Of a stretch of DNA of 64,000 nt, positions 16,678 to 37,354 are shown piece after piece. The position numbers and the translations under genes were made by a program. The stretch is taken from positions 97,481 through 161,480 of the forward strand of contig JBGSJJ010000005.1 in assembly GCA_041742075.1 (NCBI GenBank), read 5' to 3'. Position 1 is the first letter of the stretch. Every line of letters begins with the position of its first letter. Source of the DNA: Minisyncoccia bacterium. Its GTDB lineage: Bacteria; Patescibacteriota; Minisyncoccia; Phycocordibacterales; UBA918. The notes below the pieces were generated by a model. It was not told the origin of the DNA. It did not search any database and saw only the letters and a list, made by a program, of their open reading frames with translations.

Positions 16678-18000
16678 ATGGCAAAACCGCTCATTGTGTG
16701 TCGAAATCTCGACATCATCTACAACAAAGGAAAATCAAACGAATTTAGAGCACTTCAAAATGCTAGTACTGACATCTATGAAGGTGAGTACATTATTCTG
16801 TTCGGTGCGTCTGGTTCAGGTAAGTCTACCCTCATGTATGCCATCCAGGGCTCACTGCCACCAGGCGGAGGAACCATGCTTATTGGTGGGGAAGACATTT
16901 ACAATATCCCGGTTGATGACCGTATCTACTTTCAACGATACATCATGGGTATTATCTTCCAGTCATTTAACCTGATTGGGTCTCTTTCGGTACTCGACAA
17001 TGTAGCCCTGCCGATGATTTTTGCTAACGTGAATAAGCCAACCCGCGAACGTCGCGCACAATCGCTTCTCGAGCGGTTTGGTGTTGGTCACGTCTCACAC
17101 AAGATCCCAGCGATGCTTTCCGGAGGTCAGCAACAACGTGTTTCAGTAGCACGGTCGATGGTTAATGACCCTAAGATTCTTCTGGCTGACGAACCGACCG
17201 GTAACCTCGACTCGGTTTCGACTCAGCAAGTAATGGACAAAATTGATGAAATTAACACGTTCGATAAACGCACAATTATCATGGTGTCGCACAACGCGGC
17301 CCACTTGAGCTACGCCCACCGTGTGTACTACCTCAAAGACGGTTTTATTGTCCGTGAAGTGGTAAACCCACAGCGTAAGCAAATCAAACCGGTAAAAGAG
17401 GGGGAGACGATTGTAACTGAACTCGAACAGCTCGCCCGGCTTTTCCCCTATGACTCAGTTGATACCCTTCGCGTAAAAAGTTTAGTAAATCTCCTCACGC
17501 AGGAGTATACCTTTGATCAACTTGAGCGAATGGAACGGGTGATGAGCTTCTTGATTGAAGGTAAGGTGGATAAAACTGCCGTCATAAAGGCCCTAGTCCT
17601 CCCGTACGAACAAGGTGGTGTCGGGATACCGGAAAAAGATGCGCGAAAAATGGTACATATCGCTACTAAGATTGTTGGACAAGCAGAGGATATTCGGCGC
17701 TTCAGAAAAAAGCATACTGATGACCATGTATTTTTTGACCAGCACCGTCTTGCTGAACGATTGCGCGACCATCTTCTCCAATCATATCGTCTCGCTCTTT
17801 CAAAAAAGCAAGATGAAAACTTGGTTGAACTCATCGCTGACCGAGTGGTTGGTGTGAGTGGGGAAGATGAATTTAATGCTGAGCTCATGAAAGGTGTGAG
17901 TGTCGGTGGGTTAGCTCTTTCAGAAAAAGAGGCCGATGACCTCACTCGCTATTTTGAAAAAATTATTGCCCTTGGTGTGGATGTAAGCTACAAGTCGTAG
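16678..18000 (+). CDS. ABC transporter ATP-binding protein of the FtsE/LolD/MacB family, with an unusual C-terminal extension of about 200 aa.
   Basis: Walker A GASGSGKST, ABC signature LSGGQQQRVSVARS, Walker B ILLADEPTGNLD, H-loop MVSHN. The ATPase core ends near residue 230; residues 230-440 are extra. Confidence 0.85.
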   Translation: MAKPLIVCRNLDIIYNKGKSNEFRALQNASTDIYEGEYIILFGASGSGKSTLMYAIQGSLPPGGGTMLIGGEDIYNIPVDDRIYFQRYIMGIIFQSFNLIGSLSVLDNVALPMIFANVNKPTRERRAQSLLERFGVGHVSHKIPAMLSGGQQQRVSVARSMVNDPKILLADEPTGNLDSVSTQQVMDKIDEINTFDKRTIIMVSHNAAHLSYAHRVYYLKDGFIVREVVNPQRKQIKPVKEGETIVTELEQLARLFPYDSVDTLRVKSLVNLLTQEYTFDQLERMERVMSFLIEGKVDKTAVIKALVLPYEQGGVGIPEKDARKMVHIATKIVGQAEDIRRFRKKHTDDHVFFDQHRLAERLRDHLLQSYRLALSKKQDENLVELIADRVVGVSGEDEFNAELMKGVSVGGLALSEKEADDLTRYFEKIIALGVDVSYKS

Positions 18001-18009
18001 AGAAAGTTT

Positions 18010-18018
18010 TGCTATACT
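18010..18018 (+). promoter_or_regulatory. Extended -10 promoter element TGCTATACT, 6 nt upstream of the ATG at 18025 (leaderless candidate).
   Basis: Exact 9-mer shared with 25275, 55719 and 58683. Confidence 0.5.
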
Positions 18019-18024
18019 GACCAT

Positions 18025-19233
18025 ATGAGACTCCAAGATTTGGCCCAGCTCTCCACGCGTGCTTTTAAAACCAACCCGCTTCGTACCTGGTTAACTATTT
18101 TAGGTATGGGAGTGGGTACTGGTGCGGTGGTGGTTTTGGTGGGACTTGGTTTCGGACTCCAACAGATTATTTTGGAGCAAATTGTGTTTGGAGAAACATT
18201 GCTTTCCCTGGGTGTATCAGCCACTGGTGCACAAAACTTACGTCTGACACCGGAAGTGGTAAACGAATTTAAGCAAATGGATAACGTGCTCGATGCTGCG
18301 CCACTGGCTCGTTTTCCGGCTTTGGTAACCTATAAAGGCCTCACTGGTAACGTATTCGTGCAAGGCGCTGAACCGCCCTATATGCGCTATGGCGGAGTGA
18401 CTGCCCAAGAAGGAGAGGTGTTTACTGACGAAGACTTGGGGGACACCAATACCGTAATGCTTTCACCAGCCGTATTGAAACTATTCGGCATTGAAGATAT
18501 GGAAGGCTTTGTCGGTGAAAAAGTTCGCTTTCGTATTTTGGTTCCCGCTAACGACGGTACTGACACTATTAATGAAGTGGTGATTGAAAAAGACTACACG
18601 GTACGCGGTATTACTAAAGAAGAAGGGGTGCTCAATGCTCTTATGATGCTTCCCGAACTGCGTACGTATATTGGTATCGAAGAGTTCGAGCGTGTCCAGG
18701 TTCGTGTCGAAAGTAGCGAGTTCTTGCCAGTCGTAGAAGCGCAACTGATTGAAATGGGGTATCGAGTAACGGCTTTGTCAAAGACCGTTGAGCAAGCATC
18801 GAAAATCTTCCAAGGAGTTCAGGCTGTTTTAGCTACGTTTGGTGGTATAGCTCTCTTGGTGTCAGCTATCGGTATGTTTAACACCATGACAGTGACTCTC
18901 CTCGAGCGAACCAAGGAAATTGGTATTATGCGTACTATTGGTGCTGCGCCACAGGACATTAAGTGGCTGTTCGTCTCTGAGTCTATCGTGGTGGGTTTTC
19001 TTGGGGGTATATCGGGGATTGTGATGGGGGTGACCCTTGGTTTGGTGGTAAACCTGCTTCTTAATATCGCGGCCAGTCAATTCGGCGGTGAATCAGTTAA
19101 CCTCTTTTCCTTCCCAATTCCATTCCTCATTTTCATTGCGCTTTTCTCCGCGACGGTGGGTTACTTAACAGGAATTTTCCCAGCGAAGCGGGCGGCGTCT
19201 TTGAACCCACTTGATGCGATTCGCTACGAATAG
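18025..19233 (+). CDS. ABC transporter permease, FtsX/MacB-like: one N-terminal transmembrane helix, an extracytoplasmic domain of about 200 aa, and three C-terminal transmembrane helices.
   Basis: The hydrophobicity pattern and the C-terminal FtsX-like region (GIMRTIGA...; LNPLDAIRYE at the C-terminus) fit this family. It sits immediately downstream of the ABC ATPase. Confidence 0.8.
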   Translation: MRLQDLAQLSTRAFKTNPLRTWLTILGMGVGTGAVVVLVGLGFGLQQIILEQIVFGETLLSLGVSATGAQNLRLTPEVVNEFKQMDNVLDAAPLARFPALVTYKGLTGNVFVQGAEPPYMRYGGVTAQEGEVFTDEDLGDTNTVMLSPAVLKLFGIEDMEGFVGEKVRFRILVPANDGTDTINEVVIEKDYTVRGITKEEGVLNALMMLPELRTYIGIEEFERVQVRVESSEFLPVVEAQLIEMGYRVTALSKTVEQASKIFQGVQAVLATFGGIALLVSAIGMFNTMTVTLLERTKEIGIMRTIGAAPQDIKWLFVSESIVVGFLGGISGIVMGVTLGLVVNLLLNIAASQFGGESVNLFSFPIPFLIFIALFSATVGYLTGIFPAKRAASLNPLDAIRYE

Positions 19234-19332: not shown

Positions 19333-21198
19333 ATGTCGTACAACATGCAAGAGCTGTCATTTACAAGAACAACCGCGGGAAAAATTACGGTACTTACCAG
19401 TATCGTCGGAGTAGCAGTGTTTGCTGCCGTTTTCCTCTTTAACCTAGGAGCACAAGAGCTTCAGAAAGTTGAAGCACAAAGTTTAGCTACTACCACGCTA
19501 ACCGTGCTCAACACTCCGCCACAATGGACGGTGGACGCACAGGAACAACTCGGATCATCAACCTCTACCCCAACTAACTCGGGCACGCAAGTCTCATGGG
19601 TCGCAACTGCAACAGACCCAAGTAATCAGCCATATTTCTTGCTTTTGTGTGATACCGCAAACACCCCAACCGCTACTTCTGCCACTACAACCCTCGGCAC
19701 GAATCCACCACGCTGTAGTGCGACATCAACAGTTCGTTGGGCAGTTTCAACTTCTACTGTAAGTGGTCAGCAAGCGCGAGCAGCTACTACTACACTAGAA
19801 TCTTTTGCTGAGCAAAACACTTGGTACGCCTGGATTTGTGACGACGACTTTATTCTTCCTCGCTGTAACAGTCTCTCGAAGCAAGGAACCGGTACGACAT
19901 CTTCACCGTTTTTGGTAAACCATAGACCTAGAATCTCGAGCTTTACCAATGACTCGCCAACCTTACCGGGAGCAGTCGTTACCTTTAGCTCCTCATCGTC
20001 TGATCCTGACGTGGTTTCTTCACCAGACAGAATTCAACTGTTTGTTTGTTCAACCAACTCCTTTAGTACCACTACCCAAACTTGTAACGCGACAACAATT
20101 GCCACTTCCTCTCTCTTAACAAATAACGCATCAAGTAGCTACACTATTCCAATTCCATACGTTGACCAAAACTACAACGCCTTTGGTTTCATTCTTGATG
20201 AACATGGACATGACGCAAACCCACAAGGAGGACTCTCCGCTTTCACTGTAGCGAACGCGACTTCTACCATTAATCCCGGCGATATTACTCTGAATGGTAC
20301 CAGTACACTCATTTTGACGGTAGATGCTGGTCAAACGACTGGCTTCACACTCGACTTCACTGTAAATGATAATAATAGCTGTCTAAACTCAGCTAGTACA
20401 ACTGAGATTATCAATTACCAAGCCTCAGTCTTTAGAACGACGATTGGCTCATCTACCTGTAATGCCAATGGTACTTTTAACGCTAACAATTGTTATCCAA
20501 GCGGTGTGGGTACCTCAACCTGGAACCTGTCATGTACAGCATCTTCGACGAGTTGTACTGGAACAAGTGACACGACTAAGCTTTATAATTGTACGTTCCC
20601 GCTCTGGTACGTCGCTGATCCAACCGATGGTAGTGCTACAACGAGTATCCACTTTGCTACCGACTGGTCAGCCGCCGTATCTGCAGTAGACGATGACTTT
20701 GCCACAAGTTCGTTCACAACGGGTTCTATTGGTAAAGAATTGCAAGCCTTCCTCGCCTTTGCCCTTGATACGCTTGCCATTCCGTATGGTCAGCTTGAGC
20801 CAGGTAACTTCACACCGACCTTGACTGCATCCACTTCATTTAGAGCAACTGGAAACATTGGTCTTGACCAACGTCTGTCTGGAGAGGCTATGTGTAATAC
20901 CTATACAACAGCGGTAAATTGTCCAAACTCAGCCACTTCAACCATTCCTGAGTATGAACAAGTGTTCGCTACCTCAACTGTTGGCTACGGAGCAGCATCA
21001 ACCAGTGGTAATGTACTTTCTTCATCATCACCTGGAGTATTCCTAGACCTCAACGTACCAAAGTCTACTTCAACCAGTGTCCAGGCAACTGCTCGAACGT
21101 ACTGGGGTATCAACGTTCCGATTTCGATAACCTTCTCAGGTTCGTACACAGGTGAAAACACATTCATAGGTGTAGCAAGTAATCCACTCCAATGGTAA
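19333..21198 (+). CDS. Secreted, Thr/Ser-rich, Cys-containing hypothetical protein with an N-terminal membrane anchor or signal sequence.
   Basis: N-terminal hydrophobic segment ITVLTSIVGVAVFAAVFLF. Long T/S-rich composition and many paired Cys residues. Confidence 0.6.
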   Translation: MSYNMQELSFTRTTAGKITVLTSIVGVAVFAAVFLFNLGAQELQKVEAQSLATTTLTVLNTPPQWTVDAQEQLGSSTSTPTNSGTQVSWVATATDPSNQPYFLLLCDTANTPTATSATTTLGTNPPRCSATSTVRWAVSTSTVSGQQARAATTTLESFAEQNTWYAWICDDDFILPRCNSLSKQGTGTTSSPFLVNHRPRISSFTNDSPTLPGAVVTFSSSSSDPDVVSSPDRIQLFVCSTNSFSTTTQTCNATTIATSSLLTNNASSSYTIPIPYVDQNYNAFGFILDEHGHDANPQGGLSAFTVANATSTINPGDITLNGTSTLILTVDAGQTTGFTLDFTVNDNNSCLNSASTTEIINYQASVFRTTIGSSTCNANGTFNANNCYPSGVGTSTWNLSCTASSTSCTGTSDTTKLYNCTFPLWYVADPTDGSATTSIHFATDWSAAVSAVDDDFATSSFTTGSIGKELQAFLAFALDTLAIPYGQLEPGNFTPTLTASTSFRATGNIGLDQRLSGEAMCNTYTTAVNCPNSATSTIPEYEQVFATSTVGYGAASTSGNVLSSSSPGVFLDLNVPKSTSTSVQATARTYWGINVPISITFSGSYTGENTFIGVASNPLQW

Positions 21199-21282: not shown

Positions 21283-22236
21283 GTGAAACTTATAACTGGC
21301 AAAATGTATCGTCTCTTTTCATTATCATCAGTCATAATTTTCTTTTTCGTGCTCACGGCTGAAGTGGCTCTGGCAGGTTTTGGAGTTACACCTCCGTATG
21401 TTCGTAACACGAGTCTTACTCGTAATTCAACGTATGAGCAGCAAATTTTAATTGTTCGTGGTGACCCGAACGTTCCCCTTAAGGCGTCTATTTTAGTTGA
21501 CGCGCCTGGCTTCTCTGAATGGATTGAAGTTGTTGAAGGAACAGAGTTTGTCCTCCCACGCGGTGAGCAAAAAGTACCAATGACGGTTCGTGTTCGAATA
21601 CCTGATGATGCTGAGTTTAAAAACTACACAGGTTCAATTCGTATCAAGACCGGAGCGGTAGACGATCAGGTTAGTGCTGGAGCGGTAAACATTTCTCTCG
21701 GGGCACAGATTGACCTAGAACTTAACGTCATCGATAAAGTCATCAAAGACTTCAAGGTACGTAAAATTGGTATCAGTGACTTAAACGAAGGAACAAAGAT
21801 TGGGTGGTTGTATTTTCCGGGAAAGATAAATTTCTCAATCGTACTTGAAAACACGGGTAACGTTGACGTAGCGCCGTCTAAAGTTGTCTTCAGAATTTAT
21901 GACGCCACTGGCTCAGTCTTGCTCGAAGAGACAAAGAACAAAGGCAAGATAGAACTCGTAAAGCCGTTTGCTGTGGAAGAGGTTGTCGCCTACTTACCAA
22001 CTTTTCTACCAAAAGGAACCTACCTCGCACGCTACCAAATATTTAATGACGATGAATCAAAGCTTGAAGGCGAGCTAAACCTCAGTATATTGCCGTACGG
22101 CACCCTTCAAGCAGCTGGCTTTGGGTTTAGTGGTCTTTCTCTCATGCATAAGGCATCAGTGATAATGCCAATTGTGGCTATCTTAGTTATCATACTTCTG
22201 TTTTTCATTTCAAGACGACGTAATCGTGTTCGTTAA
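21283..22236 (+). CDS. Two-domain surface protein anchored in the membrane by a C-terminal helix. First member of a three-paralog family.
   Basis: GTG start at 21283; an ATG at 21304 is the alternative. Signal peptide, two beta-rich domains (the second with the motif SIVLENTGNVDVAP), then a C-terminal transmembrane helix IMPIVAILVIILLFFI followed by RRRNR. Confidence 0.6.
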   Translation: MKLITGKMYRLFSLSSVIIFFFVLTAEVALAGFGVTPPYVRNTSLTRNSTYEQQILIVRGDPNVPLKASILVDAPGFSEWIEVVEGTEFVLPRGEQKVPMTVRVRIPDDAEFKNYTGSIRIKTGAVDDQVSAGAVNISLGAQIDLELNVIDKVIKDFKVRKIGISDLNEGTKIGWLYFPGKINFSIVLENTGNVDVAPSKVVFRIYDATGSVLLEETKNKGKIELVKPFAVEEVVAYLPTFLPKGTYLARYQIFNDDESKLEGELNLSILPYGTLQAAGFGFSGLSLMHKASVIMPIVAILVIILLFFISRRRNRVR

Positions 22237-22251
22237 ACAGAAATAGGGTAT

Positions 22252-23361
22252 ATGATCTTATTTTCTAGAAACATATTTCTGGTAGCACTCATCTTTGTTT
22301 TGTTGCCACAGCAATTACTAGCACAGTCATATATTGCAACAACGACACTCAGTTTAAGTATTTGTGGTGATTCAGTGATAAACCCTGGCGAAGAATGTGA
22401 CATACCATCCGAGACTGGTGTCTATAGTACGACTATTGTTGGGCGACAATGCAATGTTAACTGTCAGTTTGGTCCCTACTGTGGAGATGGAATTTTGCAG
22501 ACGCTGTTTAGTGAAGAGTGCGATGACGGTAACAACGATGACGCTGACTTCTGTAGTAGTACCTGTACGATTGAACCAGCTGGTTCAGGTGGTGGTGGTT
22601 CCTCTGGTGGTGGTGGTTCCTCCGGCGGGAGTAGCCGAGACCTGGGGGATACAGAGATTAGTGTCACGGGACGGGCGTATCCAAACCAGACGGTCAACAT
22701 TACGCTTGATGGTAATTCTGTTGGATCAGTTCGTGCTGACTCTCAAGGACGATTTGATTTTACTACCGCAGCTTCCCCAGGAACAGTTTCGATGGGTTTT
22801 TGGGCAAACGACAATCAAGGTACTCGCTCGATAACGCTCAACAATACCTTTGACGTTACTCAAGGAGCCATAACGAACATTGCAAGTATTTTACTTCCAC
22901 CGACACTCCGCGTGAATAGTACCCAAATCGATCCCGGCGCAACAGTCACGTTTAGTGGTCAAGCGCTTCCTAACGCCACGGTACAAGTCCATATCGACGG
23001 TAGTCGTATTGTACAGACCACAACGGCTAACACACTCGGTGTATGGACGCTTAACTACGCCACAAATGCACTCACGCCAAAAGCGTACCCAGTAAAAGCC
23101 CGCTACCAGATCGGAGTTCCACCACTTGTAACTGAAAGTAACTTCAGCTCTACCTTACAACTCTTTGTCGGTGTGGAAGGGCAGTCAAGTACACCGTCCG
23201 ACCTCAGTCGTGACGGCAGGGTAAACCTTACTGACTTTTCTATTCTTATTTTCTGGTGGAATAGTAATGGTGGTGATTCTGACCCTCCGGCTGACATAAA
23301 CAATAACGACCGAGTCGGAATCGAAGACTTTTCTATATTGCTGTTTAATTGGACCGGATAG
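22252..23361 (+). CDS. Secreted protein. Domains in order: Cys-rich repeats of the Myxococcus type, a G/S linker, Ig-like domains, and a C-terminal type-I dockerin-like double repeat.
   Basis: Signal peptide. CGDSVINPGEECD... and CGDGILQTLFSEECDDGNNDDADFCSSTC. Dockerin segments DLSRDGRVNLTDFSILIFWW and ADINNNDRVGIEDFSILLFNW. Confidence 0.65.
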   Translation: MILFSRNIFLVALIFVLLPQQLLAQSYIATTTLSLSICGDSVINPGEECDIPSETGVYSTTIVGRQCNVNCQFGPYCGDGILQTLFSEECDDGNNDDADFCSSTCTIEPAGSGGGGSSGGGGSSGGSSRDLGDTEISVTGRAYPNQTVNITLDGNSVGSVRADSQGRFDFTTAASPGTVSMGFWANDNQGTRSITLNNTFDVTQGAITNIASILLPPTLRVNSTQIDPGATVTFSGQALPNATVQVHIDGSRIVQTTTANTLGVWTLNYATNALTPKAYPVKARYQIGVPPLVTESNFSSTLQLFVGVEGQSSTPSDLSRDGRVNLTDFSILIFWWNSNGGDSDPPADINNNDRVGIEDFSILLFNWTG

Positions 23362-23382
23362 GAAAATGAGCAAAGGAGCGTC

Positions 23383-23404
23383 GCGACTATTGCGAATTTT
23401 CTTC
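23383..23404. repeat. Copy 1 of a 22-bp direct repeat, GCGACTATTGCGAATTTTCTTC. It overlaps a 7-bp-stem hairpin, GCGAATT-N8-AATTCGC, at 23392-23413.
   Basis: Exact 22-mer also at 23574-23595. Confidence 0.7.
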
Positions 23405-23429
23405 CCAATTCGCCCCTTTCCTAGGTCAG

Positions 23430-23463
23430 CGTAGAATTTTCATTAGCAATAGAAAATTCTACG
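23430..23463. promoter_or_regulatory. Perfect 12-bp-stem hairpin, CGTAGAATTTTC-N10-GAAAATTCTACG, in the intergenic region. Terminator-like or a protein-binding palindrome.
   Basis: Read directly from the sequence. No T-run follows, so an operator role is as likely as a terminator. Confidence 0.55.
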
Positions 23464-23573
23464 TATGAAAAACATAGTCGCTACGCTCGTTGTTTTTCAC
23501 AATTGCTCCCAGGCGCACTCCAACCTTTGCTGAGCATCACTAGTTCTTACTAATTATTTAAATCACTCCCGTG

Positions 23574-23595
23574 GCGACTATTGCGAATTTTCTTC
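23574..23595. repeat. Copy 2 of the 22-bp direct repeat, GCGACTATTGCGAATTTTCTTC.
   Basis: Exact match to 23383-23404. Confidence 0.7.
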
Positions 23596-24008
23596 AGCGC
23601 TATTTTATTCCTAGATAAAACATCGGCGCAATACCACATAATTTCAAAGTAAATTTGCGTAGTAATTATAAATTTTCTATAGACATTTGCTATTTTGCTG
23701 TCAGAGAAATATAAATTGGCATTTTTGTGTATAACTTGCACCCGTAAAAATGTACTGCACGCTACAATGTAAATGTATTTGTTACAGAGGTAACTCATTA
23801 GATGGTTACTGCACTTAGTTCGCGTACTATAGTGGGCACTTCAGCCGGGTGTTATGTAGCAAATATGCTTATGGACATTTATCAATAAGGAGGTGTGGAG
23901 ACCAACTTATTATACGTACCACAACACCACAGTGGTATTGACTCACATACTAATGATGTACAACTCGTTTTTATAGTGAGGGACATAGGCTAAAAACAAC
24001 GTAGAGCT

Positions 24009-25154
24009 ATGCTTAAAACGGAAAAAACCGTTACGCAGCTCAAAACTATTGCAATGGTTGCAGGCCTCGCGATTATTTTATGGTCGCTTGGACTGCCGTA
24101 TATCCAGCTTGCTGGAGCCGCTAATGTTACAAACTTTAGCGACACACTATCAGACTCAGCCCCAAATGCATTATCAAATCATACACTTGTGTATGAAGCG
24201 ACCAGCGGTGTTGCAAACGGTGAAACTATCGTCCTTACGTTCGAAGCAGGCTTCGACCTACTCGCGGTAGATTTCAGTGACATTGATCTCTCAGGAGATA
24301 CCTTCGGTCCATTTGACCTCGCAGCGACCTGCGGAGTTGGTGTCGAGGCCAGCGTGGCCACTTCATCTGGACCAACCATTACACTTGATTTGTGTGCTGG
24401 TGAAGGAGGAGTAATCGCTGCTGACGAGGAAGTAACTATTCTCATCGGTCTAAATGCATCTGGCGGAGACGCACAGATTAGAAACCCAGGAACCGCTGTT
24501 TCTTATGACATCACTCTTGATAGTGGTTCAGAGGACAGTGGCGCAACAATTGTTGCGATTGTTGCCAGCGTTACTGTGACGGCTGCCGTAAATACCATCT
24601 TTACCTTTACGGTAGATGGTGTAGGTGGAGGTCAAAACGTAAACGGAGTAACAACTACTGGAGTAAGTTCTTCTACAGGAATTGCGTTTGGAACGTTGTC
24701 TCCGGGAGTAGCTTCAACGGCCGCTCAAGATCTTACAGTTGAAACAAATGCTAGTAATGGCTTTGTAGTAACGGTACAGACTGACGGTCCACTTGAATCT
24801 TCAACTGGAGCAGACATCGATTCATACAATGAAGGGTCTGACACAGACACTCCATCGGGTCCATGGTCAGCACCAAACGGAGTTATAGGTCAAGAGAATA
24901 CGTATGGTCACTGGGGTATTACTTCAAATGATCAAAATACACAGGGCGCTCGAGCATCAGATTTTGCTACAAGCACCTTCTCTGCAGCGAGTACAACTCC
25001 TCGCATCGTAATGGCCCATAATGACGTTGCTGACGCAAACGAGCCAGGAATTGGTATTGCGCGCGTAGGGTATCAAATAGAAATTACTTCGCTTCAAGAA
25101 GCGGGTGATGACTACACGACTACACTAACGTACGTTGCTACACCATCATTCTAA
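24009..25154 (+). CDS. Secreted G/T/S/A-rich protein that may be a major surface or S-layer-type protein.
   Basis: Signal peptide ...IAMVAGLAIILWSLGLPYIQLAGA|ANV. It is preceded by a 650-bp AT-rich intergenic region carrying repeats and a hairpin, and is followed by a strong intrinsic terminator. Confidence 0.6.
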   Translation: MLKTEKTVTQLKTIAMVAGLAIILWSLGLPYIQLAGAANVTNFSDTLSDSAPNALSNHTLVYEATSGVANGETIVLTFEAGFDLLAVDFSDIDLSGDTFGPFDLAATCGVGVEASVATSSGPTITLDLCAGEGGVIAADEEVTILIGLNASGGDAQIRNPGTAVSYDITLDSGSEDSGATIVAIVASVTVTAAVNTIFTFTVDGVGGGQNVNGVTTTGVSSSTGIAFGTLSPGVASTAAQDLTVETNASNGFVVTVQTDGPLESSTGADIDSYNEGSDTDTPSGPWSAPNGVIGQENTYGHWGITSNDQNTQGARASDFATSTFSAASTTPRIVMAHNDVADANEPGIGIARVGYQIEITSLQEAGDDYTTTLTYVATPSF

Positions 25155-25213
25155 GTAGAAGAAAAGGTACAAATCTCTCATTGCAATAGTAGAGCTACGC
25201 AAATAAACCTATC

Positions 25214-25237
25214 TCCCACCACGAGGTGGGTTTTTTG
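25214..25237 (+). terminator. Rho-independent terminator.
   Basis: TCCCACC-ACGA-GGTGGG followed by TTTTTT. Confidence 0.75.
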
Positions 25238-25274
25238 CTGTTCACATTTTTAGTCACAAACTGAGAGAGATTGT

Positions 25275-25283
25275 TGCTATACT
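25275..25283 (+). promoter_or_regulatory. Extended -10 element TGCTATACT, 7 nt upstream of the ATG at 25291.
   Basis: Exact recurrent 9-mer. Confidence 0.5.
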
Positions 25284-25290
25284 AAAGGAA

Positions 25291-26328
25291 ATGAAACGCG
25301 CAATTTGCCTTATTCTTTGTAGTGGTATTTTTCTAAGTAGTGGCAGTTATGTGTCGGCAGCTACGCTTTACATGGACCCAAATAAAATTGAGCTGATGCG
25401 TGGCGACACCAGTGTTTTTTCTCTTAGACTAAATACTGACCCGGGCGAATGTATAAACGTTGTTGATGCCGTCATAACCTATACAGAAAATATTGAACCG
25501 GTTGATATTTCTCGCGGTAATTCAATCTTGTCTATCTGGGTAGAGGAGCCAAAAATTAACAAAGAAAATCGAACCATTACGTTTGCTGGCGGGATCCCTA
25601 ATGGGTACTGTGGTCGGATAGCTGGTGACCCGAGACTTACGAACAACTTGGTAGATATTTTGTTTATGTCACCGGGTCTTTCTATTGGAACAACAGAAAA
25701 TGGCAACTTGGCCAAGATTAACTACGGTGAGCAAACGCGTGTGCTATTAAATGACGGCTTTGGTACTGAAGCACCACGACAGCTCTTTGGAGCAGAAATC
25801 ACTCTGTCACCTAATGCTGGTTCGCAGGTCAATAACGAGTGGCTTGATAGAGTGGAGGCCGATGAAATTCCTCCCGAAGACTTTACGGTAAGTCTTGAAC
25901 AAACACCAAATGCTTTTGGCGGAAAGTACTTTATTGTTTTTAATACCACCGACAAGCAAACCGGTTTAGCGTACTATGAGGTAATTGAGGAACCGCTTGA
26001 ACTCATCAATCTTTTCAGTTGGGGTGCCGCCGATGCTCCGTGGAGAGAGACGCAAAGTCCATACGTGCTAAAGGACCAGACACTTAACAGTACTATCCGC
26101 GTTCGGGCGGTGGATAAAGCTGGTAATGAGTATATGGCTACTTTGATTCCAGATGAATCAAGACGAGGCATCCCAATGCCATACCTGCTTATTTTTGGAG
26201 CGATACTGGTGCTTACGGTTGGCCTACTAACTCTCGGATACGTTCTAATTCGTCGATTCAAGGCTAGAAAATCAGAAGACCACTCTTCAGACAATGATAC
26301 GCTCGAGGAAGATGAAGTTGAAGAATAA
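25291..26328 (+). CDS. Membrane-anchored surface protein with an N-terminal cohesin-like domain, a C-terminal transmembrane helix and an acidic cytoplasmic tail.
   Basis: Signal peptide, then a cohesin-like pattern: ATLYMDP...VFSLRLNTDPGECINVVDAVITYTENIEPVDISRGNSILSIWVEEP...TITFAGGIPNGYCG. Transmembrane helix LLIFGAILVLTVGLLTLGYVLI. C-terminal tail EDEVEE. Confidence 0.6.
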   Translation: MKRAICLILCSGIFLSSGSYVSAATLYMDPNKIELMRGDTSVFSLRLNTDPGECINVVDAVITYTENIEPVDISRGNSILSIWVEEPKINKENRTITFAGGIPNGYCGRIAGDPRLTNNLVDILFMSPGLSIGTTENGNLAKINYGEQTRVLLNDGFGTEAPRQLFGAEITLSPNAGSQVNNEWLDRVEADEIPPEDFTVSLEQTPNAFGGKYFIVFNTTDKQTGLAYYEVIEEPLELINLFSWGAADAPWRETQSPYVLKDQTLNSTIRVRAVDKAGNEYMATLIPDESRRGIPMPYLLIFGAILVLTVGLLTLGYVLIRRFKARKSEDHSSDNDTLEEDEVEE

Positions 26329-26329
26329 T

Positions 26330-28093
26330 ATGAGTGCGTATTTATTTAAAAACATATATTCAACTGTCTACCTAGTCGTACTAATGGTGTTTGTGTGTTT
26401 AGGTTTTACACTTCAGGCTGAAGCTGCAACACTATCATTTTCACCAAGTACCGGTGTATACCAAAGTGGTAAAACGTTTACCGCTAGTGTTGTCATAAAT
26501 ACAGAGGGTCAATCAATCAACGCGGCAGAAGGAACGATAAAGTTTAACCCCGGCGAGCTATCAGTAGTTAGTGTAACGAAAGGCTCGCTTTTTAATCTCT
26601 GGACAGCAGAACCAACGTTTTCTAATTCAGCTGGTACCATCTCATTTAGTGGCGGTAACCCAACTGGGTACAAGGGATCAGCTGGTACGGTACTGACTAT
26701 TACGTTTAGGGCAACAGGGAGCGGTTCAGCTAAAACTTCCTTTGGTAGTGGGGCTGTTCTGGCAGCAGACGGGAGGGGTACTAACGTACTTTCTACCATG
26801 GGTAGTGGCAACTACACGATTAGTTCACAAACTACTACACCGACTGAAGAAGTGATTATTGAGTATGTAGCTCCCGCGAATACTCCCGGGGCACCAGTTA
26901 TAACCTCAACTACTCACAGTGACTCAAGTAAATGGTACAAGCAAAAAACTGCTGAGTTGAGTTGGAAACTACCGGCGGGAGTGACGGGTGTACGCACCTC
27001 GCTCGATACGTCGCCGTCTGGGGTACCGACTAAAGTCTACGACAGTCCGATTTCAAGCATCTCACTCCCTGACCTAGACGAAGGGGTTTCGTACTTTCAC
27101 TTACAATTTCGAAACGCAGATGGCTGGGGCAAAATTACCCATTATCGTCTCGCGATAGACTCTGAAGCACCTTCTGCCTTTACCTTGGCAGTAAAGGAAG
27201 GTTCAGATAGCGCTAGCCCAACCCAGACGCTTTCGTACCAGGTAACTGACGAGTCGTCTTCCGTCAATAGATTTATGCTTCAAATAGACGGTGCTGAAGC
27301 AATTGAGTATATTGATTCTGACAAGAAAGGTGAAATTATTTTGCCGGAGCTTAAACCTGGGTATCACACCATTGTTGTAGAGGCCTTTGATGAAGCGGGA
27401 AATGGCACGTTGGCTACGATTTCGTTAACGATTGAGTCATTTGATAAGCCAGTCTTTACCGAGTACCCAACGAGTATCGACAACACTGTTATTCCAGTCA
27501 TTAAAGGTAAGACGCGTCCGCAAGCGACTGTTAAAGTCACCTTTACACAAGTCGGTGTGGGAGTCTCTTCAAGTGATACCGTTAAAACCTATGAAGTCGG
27601 AGCGGGAGAAAATGGCGAATTTGTTGTTATTCCTGACGGTAGACTAGGGTATGGTGTCTATGAACTCAGCGCCATTGCGTTAGATACAAGCGGTGCCCAA
27701 AGTGACATATCTGAGATAATCCGAATAGTAGTTGAAGAGCCGGGTTACGTACGTTTTGGCACCTTTGCTATCAGTGTACTTTCAGTGGTTATTCCACTTT
27801 TGGCACTCTGTATCCTGCTGTTTGTCAGTGTGTGGTTTATTTTGGTACGAACGAGACTGCTTAAAAAGGGAGTGGTGAGAGAAGCGCATGAAGCAGAAGC
27901 CATGCTGGTACGAGAGTTTAAAGAGCTACGAACGCTACTTGATTCGCAAAAGGAAGTTTTGATAGCTTCTCGAAAGGGAGGTAAAATGACTAAGTCTGAG
28001 TCAGACCTCATAGATGAACTCGCACATGCCCTGCGGGAGTCTGAGAATCGAGTCATGAAAGAGATAGAAGATGTTAATAAGCTTGTCGAATAA
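26330..28093 (+). CDS. Membrane-anchored surface protein. Domains in order: N-terminal cohesin-like domain, Ig/Fn3-like domains, a transmembrane helix, and a cytoplasmic coiled coil.
   Basis: ATLSFSPSTGVYQSGKTFTASVVINTEGQSINAAEGTIKFNPGELSVVSVTKGSLFNLWTAEP...TISFSGGNPTGYKG. Transmembrane helix ISVLSVVIPLLALCILLFVSVWFIL. The ORF is open from 26294, but the start was chosen at the ATG at 26330 to avoid overlap with the upstream gene. Confidence 0.6.
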   Translation: MSAYLFKNIYSTVYLVVLMVFVCLGFTLQAEAATLSFSPSTGVYQSGKTFTASVVINTEGQSINAAEGTIKFNPGELSVVSVTKGSLFNLWTAEPTFSNSAGTISFSGGNPTGYKGSAGTVLTITFRATGSGSAKTSFGSGAVLAADGRGTNVLSTMGSGNYTISSQTTTPTEEVIIEYVAPANTPGAPVITSTTHSDSSKWYKQKTAELSWKLPAGVTGVRTSLDTSPSGVPTKVYDSPISSISLPDLDEGVSYFHLQFRNADGWGKITHYRLAIDSEAPSAFTLAVKEGSDSASPTQTLSYQVTDESSSVNRFMLQIDGAEAIEYIDSDKKGEIILPELKPGYHTIVVEAFDEAGNGTLATISLTIESFDKPVFTEYPTSIDNTVIPVIKGKTRPQATVKVTFTQVGVGVSSSDTVKTYEVGAGENGEFVVIPDGRLGYGVYELSAIALDTSGAQSDISEIIRIVVEEPGYVRFGTFAISVLSVVIPLLALCILLFVSVWFILVRTRLLKKGVVREAHEAEAMLVREFKELRTLLDSQKEVLIASRKGGKMTKSESDLIDELAHALRESENRVMKEIEDVNKLVE

Positions 28094-28121
28094 TCAGAAT
28101 GATATGAATAAGGATGCGTAT

Positions 28122-28757
28122 ATGAAAATTACTTTGTTGGCACTCGTCGGCTTTTTTGTAGTCGCAGTTGTTCTCTATATTGGAATTCAACAACGACTTC
28201 TTGGATCACTGACGAGTATTATCCAAAATGAAGAACAACTACAACGCGAGTACTCAACGCACCTAGCCAACAATACAGCCCCAGGTGATGTCGCCAGTTA
28301 TTACACAGACTGTAAAACTGAGTCACGCTCTGAGTATGAGCGACTTCTTTCAATCATAACAACTTTGTCTATACCTGAGCTTGAGAAGCTCGATCAGCTT
28401 TTTGTCGAATGTGCGTATTTTTATCCAGTCCAACAAGGTATAGTCTTGACTAAGCTTAAAGACTTAAACAGTACCTATACCAAACACATTGCGCTCTATG
28501 ATTCACTCTGGTTTGACAACGTGTACGCTAAAAGAGCGGACGTATGGGAACAAATTATTAAAGAAGAGTCATTAAAACACGATTTGACCCGTGAACTCGT
28601 AGCTATCCAGAAAAGTATTATTGAAGAACTCCGTAAAGGGACTCCTAAAGAAAATGAAGCAATTGAGTCACAGCGTAGTCGAGCTGACGAGATTTTGGTA
28701 GGAATACTTACTGCTCGTAACGAGTTAAATAGACTGCAGACAGAACTTAGCTATTAG
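28122..28757 (+). CDS. Hypothetical protein with an N-terminal transmembrane anchor and a coiled coil.
   Basis: MKITLLALVGFFVVAVVLYIG followed by helical, charged sequence. The ORF is open from 28071, but that would overlap the preceding gene. Confidence 0.5.
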   Translation: MKITLLALVGFFVVAVVLYIGIQQRLLGSLTSIIQNEEQLQREYSTHLANNTAPGDVASYYTDCKTESRSEYERLLSIITTLSIPELEKLDQLFVECAYFYPVQQGIVLTKLKDLNSTYTKHIALYDSLWFDNVYAKRADVWEQIIKEESLKHDLTRELVAIQKSIIEELRKGTPKENEAIESQRSRADEILVGILTARNELNRLQTELSY

Positions 28758-28765
28758 TAGCATCT

Positions 28766-29518
28766 ATGAAGCGCATACTGCACTTTTTCTTTCCCTGGAT
28801 GATAAAGTCAAAATCGTCTACTGTTAAGTATGCGTTCCCACTTTTCTTTGGTATTGCCACCTTGCTTGGCGCTTCTGCCTTATTATCTGAAACTGATACC
28901 TACATTATCCTTGAAGCCGATAATGAAGAGGTGATAGCTGGGCAAAATTTTGCCATTGATGTATATGTCGTAGCTCAAGTGCCAATTAATGCCGTTGATA
29001 TACGAGTCGCGCTTCCAGTGAGTCAGGTAAAGATGCTGGGTGTCGACACGGGTGAGTCAGTTATTACCCTCTGGACCAAGCAACCATATTTTGAAAACGG
29101 CACTGTGTATTTTTCTGGCGGTACGTACCGTAAGGGTTTTGTCGGAAAACATAAAATTGGCACCATTAATGGCCAAGCACTCACCTCTGGGTTAGCCCAC
29201 GTTGGCGTAACCTACGCTGACTTATACGCTGGAGATGGTACGGGCGATAAGGTAACTGTAACAAGTGCGGGTGAAGACAAGACAGAGCTTAAAATTGCTC
29301 GAGAAGATGGGACTTTTTTACCTAGCGCTAGTCTAGAGGGAACCGCTCAGTTTGGTATTGTGGGAGATATTGATGGCGACGGTAAGGTTTCCTTAAAGGA
29401 TTTAAGCGCTTTTATGAATGCCTGGCAAACTAAGTCAGCCAATCATGACTTTGACGGTGATAACAAGATGACATTTCGTGATTTTGGCATTATTTTGTCT
29501 AAGTTTTTCTTTCAATAG
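28766..29518 (+). CDS. Secreted protein with a cohesin-like domain and a C-terminal type-I dockerin-like double repeat. Candidate adaptor protein.
   Basis: YIILEADNEEVIAGQNFAIDVYVVAQVPINAVDIRVALPVSQVKMLGVDTGESVITLWTKQP...VYFSGGTYRKGFVG. Dockerin segments GDIDGDGKVSLKDLSAFMNAW and HDFDGDNKMTFRDFGIILSKFF. Confidence 0.6.
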   Translation: MKRILHFFFPWMIKSKSSTVKYAFPLFFGIATLLGASALLSETDTYIILEADNEEVIAGQNFAIDVYVVAQVPINAVDIRVALPVSQVKMLGVDTGESVITLWTKQPYFENGTVYFSGGTYRKGFVGKHKIGTINGQALTSGLAHVGVTYADLYAGDGTGDKVTVTSAGEDKTELKIAREDGTFLPSASLEGTAQFGIVGDIDGDGKVSLKDLSAFMNAWQTKSANHDFDGDNKMTFRDFGIILSKFFFQ

Positions 29519-29614: not shown

Positions 29615-31156
29615 ATGAAAAAGAAATGTAGAGAACCTGATAGTACATGTAATGCATTACTCTACCGTTTTGTATTTAAAGGCATATATGCTTCATATGT
29701 CGTATTTTTGCTATGCGCATCTTTTGTCTTATCTGGTGTTCATGTTGTTTTTGCCAATGAAGCAGACCTCATTGTCCCAGAAGAAAGTCCACCGCTTTCA
29801 GTCGAAGAGTTTATTGCTACAGAACAAACTCCACCAAGTGAAGTAGTGGAGGATTTTGCGGTAACTGATGATCCAGTAGCACCTGATGAAGCTGAAGCCG
29901 CTGAGCCTGAAACGATTGAACAAGAACTACCGACCTCAAACGAAGAGGTGTCAGACGTTGTAGTACCTGAAGAAATTGAAGATACTGTATCCAGTGTTGA
30001 TGATACAACTCCTCCCCAAAGTGACATTGGTGGAGAGATTTTACCTGACGAGGTTGTCGACACTGCTTCTTCTACTGCCACTTCTACCGTAGAGGTAGAG
30101 ACACCGCTCATGGTAGAAACAAATAGTGATAATTTCTACCAATTTAATAAAGACGAATGTGTACGGGTTGAGGACGGCTCATTTTACTGTGGAGAGGTTG
30201 AGGAGAGTGACGCAAGCGAAGTTTTGGCTGATAGTCTTTTTTCTGCACCAGACTCAGGTGGTGACCTAGAGATATTTCTTCGCTACGATGGTGAGGAAAC
30301 TCAAGTCAGTCATAATGATGAAGATGATGCCGCCCCGTACTACGACGCGAAGTCCCACACGATAGTGTGGCACAGGCTAATAAACGATCGCTACCAGATT
30401 GTCGTCTATGACATAGAAGAGGCGAGTGAGTCAATTCTCACAAGTACGAAAGTGAACAACATGGAACCGTCTCGGTATGGCAACAAAATTGCCTGGCAAC
30501 GCTGGGTTGACTCAAATTGGGAAATAATTTTCTATGATGGAAATGAAGAAAAACAAATCTCAAATTCTATTACTCACGACGTCGCACCACTAGTCTATGA
30601 AAACTACGTACTGTGGAATAGCACCAGTATTGAAGCCGGACAACAGATAGTTATGTATGACATATCTTCTGGTGATTTAACCTATATAAAGGATGCTGAT
30701 GGTGCGGCGGTACAAAATCCAAGAATGGTACTGGTATACGAAACAGCACATGCAAACGGTGACGTGATTACTAAAGGTTTTGACCTCCAGTCGCAAGAAG
30801 TGGTTCCGCTTGGAGCCTTGCCAAGAGAAGTGCCAACAGAAATTCCGGAAAGTGATCAAACGGGTGAGACAAGAGCCTTGATACAAGGTAAATCATCCGG
30901 AAAGGATTCAGAAATTGTTGAACTTGACCTAACAAACGGAACAACGTCAGCTAGTGGGCCAGCACCGGAACCAACCGCCACTAGCTCAACAGCAGAAGTA
31001 ATTGCGGTACCGGTGACGCAAGTAACAGTGACTGAGCCAGTTGACCTCGTTATTCCACAGTATGTTGCGACTTCGTCAAGTGAAACCCCACCACGCATAC
31101 CAGAGGCCATTAGCGACATAGTAATCCCCGCATTTTCAAGCAGTGACACTGAATAG
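29615..31156 (+). CDS. Membrane-anchored, highly acidic protein with TolB/PD40-like beta-propeller repeats.
   Basis: Transmembrane helix ASYVVFLLCASFVLSGVHVVFA. A D/E-rich linker. Repeats such as ...YQIVVYDIEE..., ...WEIIFYDGNEEKQIS... and ...QIVMYDISSGDLTYI... Confidence 0.55.
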   Translation: MKKKCREPDSTCNALLYRFVFKGIYASYVVFLLCASFVLSGVHVVFANEADLIVPEESPPLSVEEFIATEQTPPSEVVEDFAVTDDPVAPDEAEAAEPETIEQELPTSNEEVSDVVVPEEIEDTVSSVDDTTPPQSDIGGEILPDEVVDTASSTATSTVEVETPLMVETNSDNFYQFNKDECVRVEDGSFYCGEVEESDASEVLADSLFSAPDSGGDLEIFLRYDGEETQVSHNDEDDAAPYYDAKSHTIVWHRLINDRYQIVVYDIEEASESILTSTKVNNMEPSRYGNKIAWQRWVDSNWEIIFYDGNEEKQISNSITHDVAPLVYENYVLWNSTSIEAGQQIVMYDISSGDLTYIKDADGAAVQNPRMVLVYETAHANGDVITKGFDLQSQEVVPLGALPREVPTEIPESDQTGETRALIQGKSSGKDSEIVELDLTNGTTSASGPAPEPTATSSTAEVIAVPVTQVTVTEPVDLVIPQYVATSSSETPPRIPEAISDIVIPAFSSSDTE

Positions 31157-31171
31157 ATAAGGTACAATACA

Positions 31172-34100
31172 GTGAAGTGTATGAACCGAACACGGCTGTT
31201 TTATAGTGAGGATAAGAAGCGCTTTAAGCAAGTAATTGTATCAGTGTGTCTTTTTGCGTTACTTCTTTCAGACGTTGCTACCATATTTACTCTTATTACA
31301 CCAATACCTGCCGAGGGTGCGGAAGTGACGATAACGTCGGTTGAAAGTACGACTGCAGCGAGACATTTACATAGCGGTTCACAATCAGTGTTTATATCTG
31401 ACCAGGAGGGGTACAAATTTTTTGCAGAATTTATATCGGCGGGAAACTCTGAGTGCTCGTACGTAAAAACAGAAGATGGTGGTGACACCTGGGGTGTCGC
31501 GCAAAAGGTTGACGACCAAGGAACCGGAACAGACTGTCTTGGTATTACCGTCCACTATGATAAATGGACCCCGGGAGATACTGGTGACTATATCCATATT
31601 TTGACCATGGATAACGGTTCAGACGACTTATTTTATAACCGTCTTGATACAACTGATGATTCACTTTTGGCGGGAGCAACTGCTATTAACGTGACCCAAA
31701 CTGCTGGCTACCCAACGGTGACATTTGTAGACTCAGATAATAAGTCGAGTATTACTAAAAGTACGACTGGTGAGCTATTTATTTCTGTTGACGAAGGAAC
31801 ACTGAATGGTTCAAGAGTGTACCGATGTAGTACCGCCTGCGATACGCCGTCTAACTGGTCTGAAGCAGGTACTTCTCCGCAAGACGATGTGAACGATTGG
31901 TCACTTCTTACGCCGCTTCTGGCTGGAGAAGTTTTGTTAATTAACTGGGACTTATCGGCCAACACCCTTAGGTCGCGTGTTTGGCACACCTCATCTAGCT
32001 CGTGGAGTACTTCATGGACGACAATTACTAACATAGCAGAAGAGAATACGACGTATGACGTTGGTATGTCCGCAGTAACCGATAAAAATGGCGTTGTTTA
32101 TCTCGCACATACTGCAGACAACACCACAATTGGTGGTAATAATGATGACGTTAGAACTAAGCGATACGATGGATCATGGGCTACTACTACCAACGTCGTT
32201 ACAAATACCTCACGAGGGGTTACTCAGGTAGCCTTAGGGCTCGATTCAAACACTAATGATGTCTATGTGGCATACACAGCGAGAACGACGGCCGCTACCG
32301 CCAGTACGACCCGGGTCTATTGGCATAAGTCTACTGATGGAATGTCTACTTGGGGCAGTGAGCAAGGACCAGTAAATACTCCGAGCGGTGACCTGTATGG
32401 TATAGACTTAAACAGAATCTCTAACGAACGTATCTACGCGTCTTGGTATAGCTTAACGGGTAGTCATATACGAGGCGATACTTTAGCTGACGTTTATGGT
32501 GGTGTAGCGGTAAGTGCGACGAGTACGCAAGTAACAGAAGTGCGAGCAAGTTCAACTAACGTCTATAGTGGTGGTACATTTGTCCTTCAAGAAAACTCTA
32601 TCGTACGAACCATCAACTCCATTACGGTAAGTGAGAACGGATCGATCGATGCCTCAACCGGTATTAGAAATACCAAGCTGGTGTACGACCTGGATACATC
32701 TGCTCCGTATAACTGTGTCAGTGAAAGTTACGGTGGTAGTGAACTGCAGTACGGTGACACTGATACCAATGGTTTCTCTGCTTCAGATGGAGTGTCTGCT
32801 TTTAGTGATATCGGGATAACTATTAGTAGTACGTCGGCCATGTGTTTGTATGTCGTACATGATGTAACAAGTGAAGCGGTCGATGGTGACACAATTAACT
32901 TTTATATCGACGACCCAAGTACAGATGTTGAAATATCAGTTGGCGGAGTGGTTGTCCCAAGTACGATAATAGATATTTTTGGTACAACTACGGTGAAAGA
33001 TGATGTCCTTACCCAAAGCCACTATCATTTTAGAAATGATGACGGGAGTGAGACGACAGCTACCTCAAAAACTGGCGGCTCTGAAGATACTGAATTAACT
33101 GCACTCCAGCAAAATTCACCCGTACGGCTTCGTATAGAAGTCTCAAACGAGGGATCAACAACGTCACTCCCAACCTCACTTCGCCTTGAGTATAGTCTCT
33201 CAACTTCAACGTGTAGTGTGGCGACCGGTTGGACCGATGTTGGGGCAACGAATGACGCAATTAATATGTCAAACACTGGTAACTTAACGGATGGCTCAAA
33301 TACAACCGACATTCCCAATGGTGACGGAGGAGTTTCAAACGAAAATACAACATTTTTAAGCAGTAATGGTGGAGTCCGTGACACTAGTTCACAAACCGGA
33401 CCACTTACCTTTGCTTCAACTACCTTTGTTGAGCTTGAGTACTCAATTGTTGCTTCAACCAGTGCACCGGAGGGGAGTGCCTACTGTTTTAGGTTGACTG
33501 ACGCCGGGACGCCACTTGGAAACTATGTTGAATACCCACGGGTCACCATAGACTCAGCCGTAAGGCTTTCAGCCTTAGGGAGTCAGATAGCCAATACAGT
33601 TATTCCAGGAACTGCGGTATATATTGGAGGCGCCTTTGTCCTTGAAGAAAATGTTTTAAGTCGAGATGTTACGAGTATTACCATAAAGGAAAGTGGTAGT
33701 ATCGATGCCACAACTGGCCTTACTAACACGTCTCTTTATTATGAGACTGATACATCGTTGCCGTATGATTGTTCAAGTGAAAGTTATGCTGGTGGTGAAA
33801 CCGCATTTAGTTCAGCCGGCACGTTTACTGGAGCGGATGGAACGGCGACATTTACCGACACGGTAAACTTTTCAACCAGTAGTACCCTTTGCTTGTACGT
33901 GGTAACTGACATTACTGAGTCAGCCGTCAATGGTGAGACACTCGACATTAGCATTACTAACCCTTCAACGGATGTATTAGTAAGTGGTGGGGCAACAGTT
34001 TCGCCGGGCGCTCTCGTTGACATAACCGGGAGTACTACGTTAAATGGGGCAATTTTAACACAGACACATTTTCACTTTAGAAATGATGACGGGAATGAGA

Positions 34101-37100: not shown

Positions 37101-37354
37101 CTACCGGCTGTTCAGTCTTAGCAAACAGTTGCTTTGGTTACCACGCTGGAGATGACGTTCTGGAGGGAGGATCAGCACGTTTTGCGCCAAATGATACGTT
37201 TTCTAGTATCAACACTAGTTTGGGCGAGATTATGTACAGTACCGTGCCGGCGAGCGATACTCATGATATTGTATATGGGATCTCAGTTAGTGAACGGGCG
37301 CCAGCCGGTGCGTACCAAAACAATATTTCCTATATAGCGGTACCAGTGTATTAA
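31172..37354 (+). CDS. Giant secreted surface protein (2060 aa) with BNR/Asp-box repeats near the N-terminus and an internal tandem duplication of about 1.05 kb.
   Basis: Transmembrane or signal segment VIVSVCLFALLLSDVATIFTLI. BNR motifs TEDGGDTWG and STDGMSTWG. The repeated module ...LTQ(S/T)H(Y/F)HFRNDDG(S/N)ETTATSKTGG...LEY(S/G) occurs at about nt 33000 and 34060. Confidence 0.8.
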   Translation: MKCMNRTRLFYSEDKKRFKQVIVSVCLFALLLSDVATIFTLITPIPAEGAEVTITSVESTTAARHLHSGSQSVFISDQEGYKFFAEFISAGNSECSYVKTEDGGDTWGVAQKVDDQGTGTDCLGITVHYDKWTPGDTGDYIHILTMDNGSDDLFYNRLDTTDDSLLAGATAINVTQTAGYPTVTFVDSDNKSSITKSTTGELFISVDEGTLNGSRVYRCSTACDTPSNWSEAGTSPQDDVNDWSLLTPLLAGEVLLINWDLSANTLRSRVWHTSSSSWSTSWTTITNIAEENTTYDVGMSAVTDKNGVVYLAHTADNTTIGGNNDDVRTKRYDGSWATTTNVVTNTSRGVTQVALGLDSNTNDVYVAYTARTTAATASTTRVYWHKSTDGMSTWGSEQGPVNTPSGDLYGIDLNRISNERIYASWYSLTGSHIRGDTLADVYGGVAVSATSTQVTEVRASSTNVYSGGTFVLQENSIVRTINSITVSENGSIDASTGIRNTKLVYDLDTSAPYNCVSESYGGSELQYGDTDTNGFSASDGVSAFSDIGITISSTSAMCLYVVHDVTSEAVDGDTINFYIDDPSTDVEISVGGVVVPSTIIDIFGTTTVKDDVLTQSHYHFRNDDGSETTATSKTGGSEDTELTALQQNSPVRLRIEVSNEGSTTSLPTSLRLEYSLSTSTCSVATGWTDVGATNDAINMSNTGNLTDGSNTTDIPNGDGGVSNENTTFLSSNGGVRDTSSQTGPLTFASTTFVELEYSIVASTSAPEGSAYCFRLTDAGTPLGNYVEYPRVTIDSAVRLSALGSQIANTVIPGTAVYIGGAFVLEENVLSRDVTSITIKESGSIDATTGLTNTSLYYETDTSLPYDCSSESYAGGETAFSSAGTFTGADGTATFTDTVNFSTSSTLCLYVVTDITESAVNGETLDISITNPSTDVLVSGGATVSPGALVDITGSTTLNGAILTQTHFHFRNDDGNETTATSKTGGVEDIVLTDFPREVPTRVRVQVSNEGSASSAPVAYQLEYGTKITTCENIGTWLSMDSVNAAFEVVDSSNLTDDTDTTDITVGTGGVTNENTTFLTPNSSVEEGSALSATTTLSDTEFIELEYVFQQTDKAGYNTSYCFRLSKSGVPLNAYDKYPELTTTTKKDFKVQRGSTTVTGTSVTITAGVDYVAPSSTSSAFIRITNSNHTGAGRVSGGGNQFARDVSTYISNPRNLLTSVTFVRPTGAINNTRVDWEIVEYVGDVGGDNEMIVRDQYIVDYGTTATATSGPAVSGVVSNNDVVVFITGAFSPDASQNDYETLQSTSNWATTTQQPTFTRGVAGGDAVRLSYAVVEFTGVNWKVQRIQHTYTAVGSLETKDITPVNSLSRAFIHTQKQMTNGLQSMANFGHEVWLSSIGVLSFRLDGAATTASGHTSVAWVIENTQLTLGAMKVHRDASGSTSGGVEPLNLSLAIGATLAATTTSSIFANSRLSSNGANFPQPIAGFSIASTTNILLWRSDSGNVLTFRVEVVEWPVAELSFRQNYYQFYVDNGSSTPEDIWPPGPTDLDENAAVTGAYEPIGEGEQIRIRMTLKVANATFPDNNQSFKLQYGRRTTPSCTAISSWSDVGNVGSGAVWRGYNTAAIDGSTLPSTLISIADVAGTFEEENNSAVNPNTVLETEDIEYDWAIEHNGALQRSDYCFRMVYADGTPLSVYSEYPTLRTTGYTPVISKWRWYTDESSATPLIPLAGENVSPIDVVNSEVLKLRVTLREVESATGENVKFAVQYSQYANFSDGGTFITSTTTCTSSSTWCYADVAGIDNELIDEAILSDAESCASATGTGCGTYNEIASSTSLLTQDALSTLEFEYAIRQGIPRVGGTYYFRLYDTVNNEPISASSSTFPSLITEGALLSFSVNGLPSGTTTEGIVTDATTTPTSLSFGYLPFDDVQYGAHRLSVSTNATEGYRLFVVADQQLTDLYGNTILPISGTNTAPVSWATGCSVLANSCFGYHAGDDVLEGGSARFAPNDTFSSINTSLGEIMYSTVPASDTHDIVYGISVSERAPAGAYQNNISYIAVPVY

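Follow-up and report, generated by a model that had tools for sequence, protein, structure and literature searches.

Gene content and conservation of the locus

The window analysed here is a 64,000-nucleotide stretch of a Minisyncoccia bacterium contig (JBGSJJ010000005.1), in which an initial annotation had placed a surface-display or host-attachment set, built from cohesin and dockerin modules, at positions 22252-29518. Every open reading frame that it named was present as stated, and the module set is real; it does not stand alone as a display system, but is the middle of a larger conserved, pilus-like locus of ~23 kb, running from ~16.7 kb to ~40 kb. All genes described below lie on the forward strand and are named by their start positions. 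Conservation was assessed in 36 full-flank loci from fully sampled species genomes of Paceibacteria. The four cohesin/dockerin genes (22252, 25291, 26294, and 28766) and the candidate pilin gene 24009 were each present in 36/36 loci, with gene order and strand unchanged throughout, and a relative of 26294 was found in at least 218 species-representative genomes. Open reading frame coordinates placed 25291, 26294, 28071, and 28766 so closely together that neighbours overlap or lie ≤10 nt apart, and hydropathy analyses revealed signal-like N-terminal segments in all of the proteins.

A MacB/LolCDE-type ABC pair (16678..19233), recognised by NCBIfam and Pfam matches, opens the locus. Its ATPase (16678-18000) has an additional C-terminal region of ~200 aa, and its permease (18025-19233) contains MacB_PCD and FtsX domains. 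The pair was located immediately upstream, in the same orientation, in 31-33 of the 36 loci, with 76-80% amino-acid identity; it is a conserved neighbour that may also belong to the system. The 621-aa product of the next gene (19333..21198; 35/36 loci) is rich in Thr/Ser and has 14 Cys and a hydrophobic segment at its N-terminus; family profile searches in Pfam and NCBIfam gave no match for it, and hhalign detected no pilin C-terminal domain (2-3.5%). The 228-aa product of 28071 (28071..28757), a gene packed tightly between the cohesin genes, has a TM helix at its N-terminus and a helical domain that evolves fast (34.7% mean pairwise identity); a counterpart of 217-221 aa occupies the same position in loci L001, L003, and L006. 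Farther downstream, 29615..31156 (34/36 loci) encodes a 513-aa protein with an N-terminal hydrophobic segment, an acidic linker, and beta-propeller repeats (TIGR04275, E 2.9e-7), and 38361-40019 encodes a 552-aa membrane protein with a weakly WxLIP_PGBD-like N-terminus and a LytR_C domain.

Cohesin and dockerin modules

Two of the proteins combine an N-terminal cohesin domain with the C-terminal TM anchor that the initial annotation had assigned to them. The first (25291..26328, 345 aa) consists of a signal peptide, a cohesin-like domain (aa 24-175, nt 25360-25815), a single Ig-like domain, a TM helix placed by hydropathy at aa 300-318, and a short acidic tail. The second (26294..28093, 599 aa), whose start is ambiguous by a few codons (26294, 26312, or 26330), contains a signal peptide, a cohesin (aa 44-185, nt 26423-26848), the conserved linker IEYVAPANTP, Ig-like domains matching Big_13 (40.6 bits), and a TM helix (aa 493-511) that is followed, on the cytoplasmic side, by a conserved coiled-coil tail of ~88 aa. 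Using hhalign, the middle domain of 25291 was identified as a homologue of one of the Ig domains of 26294 (96%). The third protein (28766..29518, 250 aa; start at 28766 or 28799) joins a cohesin (aa 42-185, nt 28889-29320) through a disordered linker to a dockerin (aa 195-250, nt 29348-29515), preceded by a conserved hydrophobic N-terminal segment that may be a signal peptide or a signal-anchor.

The initial annotation had regarded the three N-terminal domains as related, and this was borne out at several levels. BLASTP linked 25291 to 26294 (E 9e-12, 27% identity over 170 aa), 28766 to 26294 (E 2e-7), and 28766 to 25291 (E 0.02). When orthologue alignments were compared using hhalign, the domains of 25291 and 26294 matched at 99.5% (E 3.7e-23), and the other two pairs at 99.1% (E 1.4e-18) and 97.4% (E 1.5e-11); moreover, the motif ..LW..EP....GTIxFSGG.P.GY.G was visible in the alignment. 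Against Pfam Cohesin, 26294 scored 36.3 bits (gathering score, 24.1), and nearly all of its more than 1157 homologues carry the annotation Cohesin+Big_13. Cohesin was matched by 12/69 orthologues of 28766, whereas 25291 gave no direct match and its family matched weakly (2/14 members, best E 0.011). The AlphaFold2 model of 28766 (pLDDT 84.4) adopted a cohesin fold, and its top 50 Foldseek matches in the PDB were all cohesins, led by 2vo8 (E 1.4e-8, TM 0.82) and including the Archaeoglobus fulgidus cohesin 2xdh (TM 0.79) and cohesins of OlpC, OlpA, and ScaB. Within 26294, the cohesin was also better conserved than the adjacent Ig domains (mean pairwise identity 64.8% versus 53-55%). Collectively, these data confirmed that 25291, 26294, and 28766 share a homologous cohesin module at the N-terminus.

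The second dockerin-bearing protein (22252..23361, 369 aa) has, as described in the initial annotation, a Cys-rich, Ig-like, and dockerin layout, just as 28766 pairs cohesin with dockerin. A signal peptide precedes a pair of acidic, Cys-rich repeats (DUF4215/TIGR02232); next come a Gly/Ser linker and two Ig-like domains, and the dockerin (aa 311-369, nt 23182-23358) forms the C-terminus. The protein contains 8 Cys and scored 47.2 bits against TIGR02232, 37.9 against DUF4215, and 38.8 against Big_6. Both C-terminal ends contain two 12-residue loops of the form D/N-x-D/N-x-D/N-G....D, each followed by a helix: DIDGDGKVSLKD and DFDGDNKMTFRD in 28766, and DLSRDGRVNLTD and DINNNDRVGIED in 22252. 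The double DxDxDG repeat that had been reported for both proteins is literal in 28766, but takes the variant form D-x-S/N-x-D/N in 22252. The Ca-ligand positions 1, 3, 5, and 12 of both loops were 94-100% conserved across orthologues, the two modules were mutually homologous (hhalign 96.9%, E 1.4e-10), and the model of 28766 showed two C-terminal loop-helix units. Against Dockerin_1 (gathering score, 22.9), 28766 passed with 24.4 bits; 22252, at 20.5 bits, fell 2.4 below, although 9/10 of its orthologues matched (best E 2.8e-7). In each of the two proteins, no part is better conserved than the dockerin, and the dockerin of 22252 surpasses every other module of the locus (80.7% mean pairwise identity, compared with 53-55% for the adjacent Ig domains). 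By these sequence comparisons, both C-terminal modules were confirmed as dockerins.

It is conceivable, although unlikely, that these modules do not pair at all: the cohesin-like domains might be beta-sandwich spacers or parts for pilus assembly or anchoring, such as PamR-like terminators, and the repeats stabilising Ca sites of EF-hand type. Consistent with this, EF-hand models matched 65/69 orthologues of 28766, scoring about as well as Dockerin_1 (56/69), and a PDB sequence search with the 28766 C-terminus ranked an EF-hand Ca-binding protein (E 1.5e-4) ahead of a dockerin (E 0.014). The shortfall of 25291 against Pfam Cohesin points the same way, as does the TM-anchored two-domain PamR, which has been proposed as the pilus anchor of M. 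amalyticus and does not involve a dockerin (bioRxiv 10.64898/2026.03.03.709456). However, the 22252 module is dockerin-specific: EF-hand was found in just 1/10 orthologues, and its PDB sequence matches were all cellulosomal dockerins. In addition, the modules are C-terminal, duplicated, and linker-flanked, as dockerins are; cohesins and dockerins occur together in every one of the 36 loci; and the strong conservation of the dockerins within their proteins likewise argues for pairing.

The pilin candidate, the giant protein, and the flanking paralogues

Upstream of 24009 lies a 647-nt intergenic region (23362..24008) in which a 26-nt repeat occurs twice, enclosing a small terminator-like hairpin each time; directly after the gene is an intrinsic terminator (25205..25240; CCCACC-ACGA-GGTGGG, then TTTTTT). 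With its long upstream region and own terminator, 24009 does look like the highly expressed surface-protein gene that had been suggested, and it now appears to be a Pam-like major pilin candidate. Its 381-aa product (24009..25154) consists of a signal peptide, an N-terminal beta-sandwich (aa ~40-175), a linker (aa ~176-204), and a C-terminal Ig-like domain (aa ~205-381). It matched NCBIfam CPR_Pam_pilin_C with E 1e-7 over positions 3-148 of the 148-position profile. The score, 32 bits, lies below the cutoff of 55, which was reached by 0/64 tested pilin-family members; 44/54 members of its family matched with the full model covered. In the linker, conserved residues alternate (T180, V182, I184, V188, V190, A192, V194, T196, F198, F200, and V202), and in the AlphaFold2 model (pLDDT 87.8) two beta domains were separated by a linker that is disordered in the monomer. 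The linker is a putative donor strand, for which the C-terminal domain would be the acceptor. The C-terminal domain was better conserved than the N-terminal one (57.6% versus 44.7% mean pairwise identity), and PamA/B follow the same trend (bioRxiv 10.64898/2026.03.03.709456). Judged by sequence, 24009 is distantly related to the Pam donor-strand pilins.

The same domain ends the giant secreted protein of 2060 aa encoded at 31172..37354 (34/36 loci). Its last ~170 aa (nt ~36839-37351) form a pilin-type acceptor domain that matched the pilin C-terminal-domain profile in hmmsearch (E 1.3e-18, profile positions 22-205 only) and in hhalign (99.8%, E 1.1e-27); the linker strand is absent. Because it has the acceptor domain and lacks a donor strand, 31172 is probably a tip adhesin.

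Two paralogous, membrane-anchored proteins (hhalign 94%, E 1.3e-7) flank the cohesin-dockerin set. The 317-aa product of 21283..22236 (35/36 loci, 63% identity) has a signal sequence, a beta-rich region that weakly matched Ig-like families (CopC and YcnI among them), and a C-terminal TM helix (aa 291-309). Its relative at 37364-38395, with a signal peptide and C-terminal TM helix, was detected in 30/36 loci, its position being at the edge of the sampled flank. Sequence searches gave no PapD-like chaperone signal in either protein; by architecture only, they resemble PamC/PamD and are candidate membrane-anchored pilus chaperones.

S-layers are visible by cryo-EM on groundwater CPR cells, and 24009 could in principle be an S-layer or sheath subunit, with the cohesin-dockerin proteins tethering the two-dimensional layer to the membrane. 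The apparent high expression of 24009 and a weak match of 21283 to the putative S-layer protein model NF033506 (E 9.8e-4) would agree with this, and the Ig-like two-domain fold of 24009 is compatible with either arrangement. A lattice is nevertheless improbable: 24009 shares homology with the C-terminal domain of Pam pilins, known structurally from a donor-strand filament; its linker is alternating-hydrophobic; and an acceptor-only giant protein suits a filament tip rather than a lattice.

A proposed membrane platform at the pilus

We consider it fairly probable that 22252-29518 encodes a non-cellulosomal cohesin-dockerin set forming the central operon block of a conserved surface-filament locus in Paceibacteria, which are CPR bacteria of the Parcubacteria type. 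All products would be exported by Sec. The TM helices of 25291 and 26294 would hold these proteins in the membrane with the N-terminal cohesin outward, and 28766 might display its cohesin likewise through its N-terminal segment. Ca-dependent docking of 22252 and 28766, through their dockerins, onto these cohesins would most likely yield a membrane-anchored hetero-oligomeric platform that is located at the pilus base or beside it and anchors, organises, or decorates the filament. The abundant subunit 24009 would polymerise by donor-strand exchange, as Pam pilins do, beginning beneath the giant tip protein 31172, with 21283 and 37364 assisting as chaperones. The earlier designation of 28766 as an adaptor fits its cohesin-plus-dockerin layout, but because its N-terminal hydrophobic segment contains invariant residues, the protein may itself be membrane-anchored, which would rule out a role as a free adaptor.

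Non-cellulosomal cohesin and dockerin modules were reportedly surveyed by Peer et al. in 2009 (FEMS Microbiol Lett 291:1, PMC3035643). As in the toxin/glycosidase complexes of C. perfringens (2vo8, 2jh2) and in A. fulgidus (2xdh), whose cohesins are the best structural matches of the 28766 model, single modules are found here on non-cellulolytic proteins, and the dockerins have the duplicated Ca-loop/helix organisation. Unlike in those pairs, the modules are carried by single-pass membrane proteins and an Ig/Cys-rich protein rather than enzymes, and three cohesins and two dockerins share a single operon block within a syntenic CPR pilus locus (36 loci). The scaffoldins of cellulosomes (C. thermocellum OlpA/OlpC/SdbA, A. 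cellulolyticus ScaA/ScaB) offer a comparable scheme of anchor, adaptor, and dockerin-bearing cargo; here, however, anchoring is by TM helix instead of SLH domains or sortase, each protein has one cohesin, enzymes and CBMs are absent, and the 'adaptor' is possibly membrane-anchored. A miniature cellulosome-like complex degrading glycans on the host surface is very improbable: cohesin and dockerin are the defining cellulosome modules and a Southlakia dockerin protein has been read as glycan-related (PMC10633639), but profile searches of the locus proteins detected neither glycoside hydrolases nor carbohydrate-binding or other catalytic domains, and dockerins occur only in proteins that otherwise contain Ig-like domains, Cys-rich repeats, or a cohesin.

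The proposed filament shares with chaperone-usher pili (Pap/Fim) the logic of donor-strand exchange and a terminator after the major subunit gene, and 31172 recalls FimH/PapG, two-domain tip adhesins whose C-terminal pilin domain takes the first strand. It differs in that outer membrane and usher are absent, the donor strand would be an inter-domain linker and not an N-terminal extension, and no sequence similarity to Pap/Fim was detected. WxL/Csc loci (Enterococcus, Lactobacillus; WxLIP/DUF916) likewise combine signal, beta domains, and C-terminal TM helix and encode very large surface proteins alongside; here, however, WxLIP_PGBD scores (26.5 bits for 37364, 18.4 bits for 38361) were below the gathering score of 27.3, and WxL-domain proteins were not found.

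The Pam pilus of Ca. Mycosynbacter amalyticus, described in 2026 in the CPR classes Saccharimonadia and Microgenomatia, is built from PamA/B/E/T pilins, the TM-anchored chaperones PamC/D, and the anchor PamR (bioRxiv 10.64898/2026.03.03.709456). In common with it, this locus belongs to a CPR bacterium and has the C-terminal pilin domain (homologous by the NCBIfam model), one subunit with an acceptor domain and without a donor strand, and a pair of TM-anchored beta-sandwich proteins, with usher and secretin absent. In contrast, it belongs to the class Paceibacteria and its candidate pilins score below the family cutoff; the tip candidate is a 2060-aa giant instead of the single-domain PamT; an RbmA-like PamR was not recognised; and the three cohesins, two dockerins, and adjacent MacB-type ABC transporter are unmentioned for pam operons, the Pam paper making no mention of cohesin or dockerin there (bioRxiv 10.64898/2026.03.03.709456). 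The suggestion of an undescribed system therefore holds in part: the pilus type had already been described, but our literature search found no paper linking cohesin or dockerin to Parcubacteria. These findings suggest that the plug-and-socket modules of cellulosomes help to build or decorate a host-contact appendage in ultrasmall Paceibacteria.

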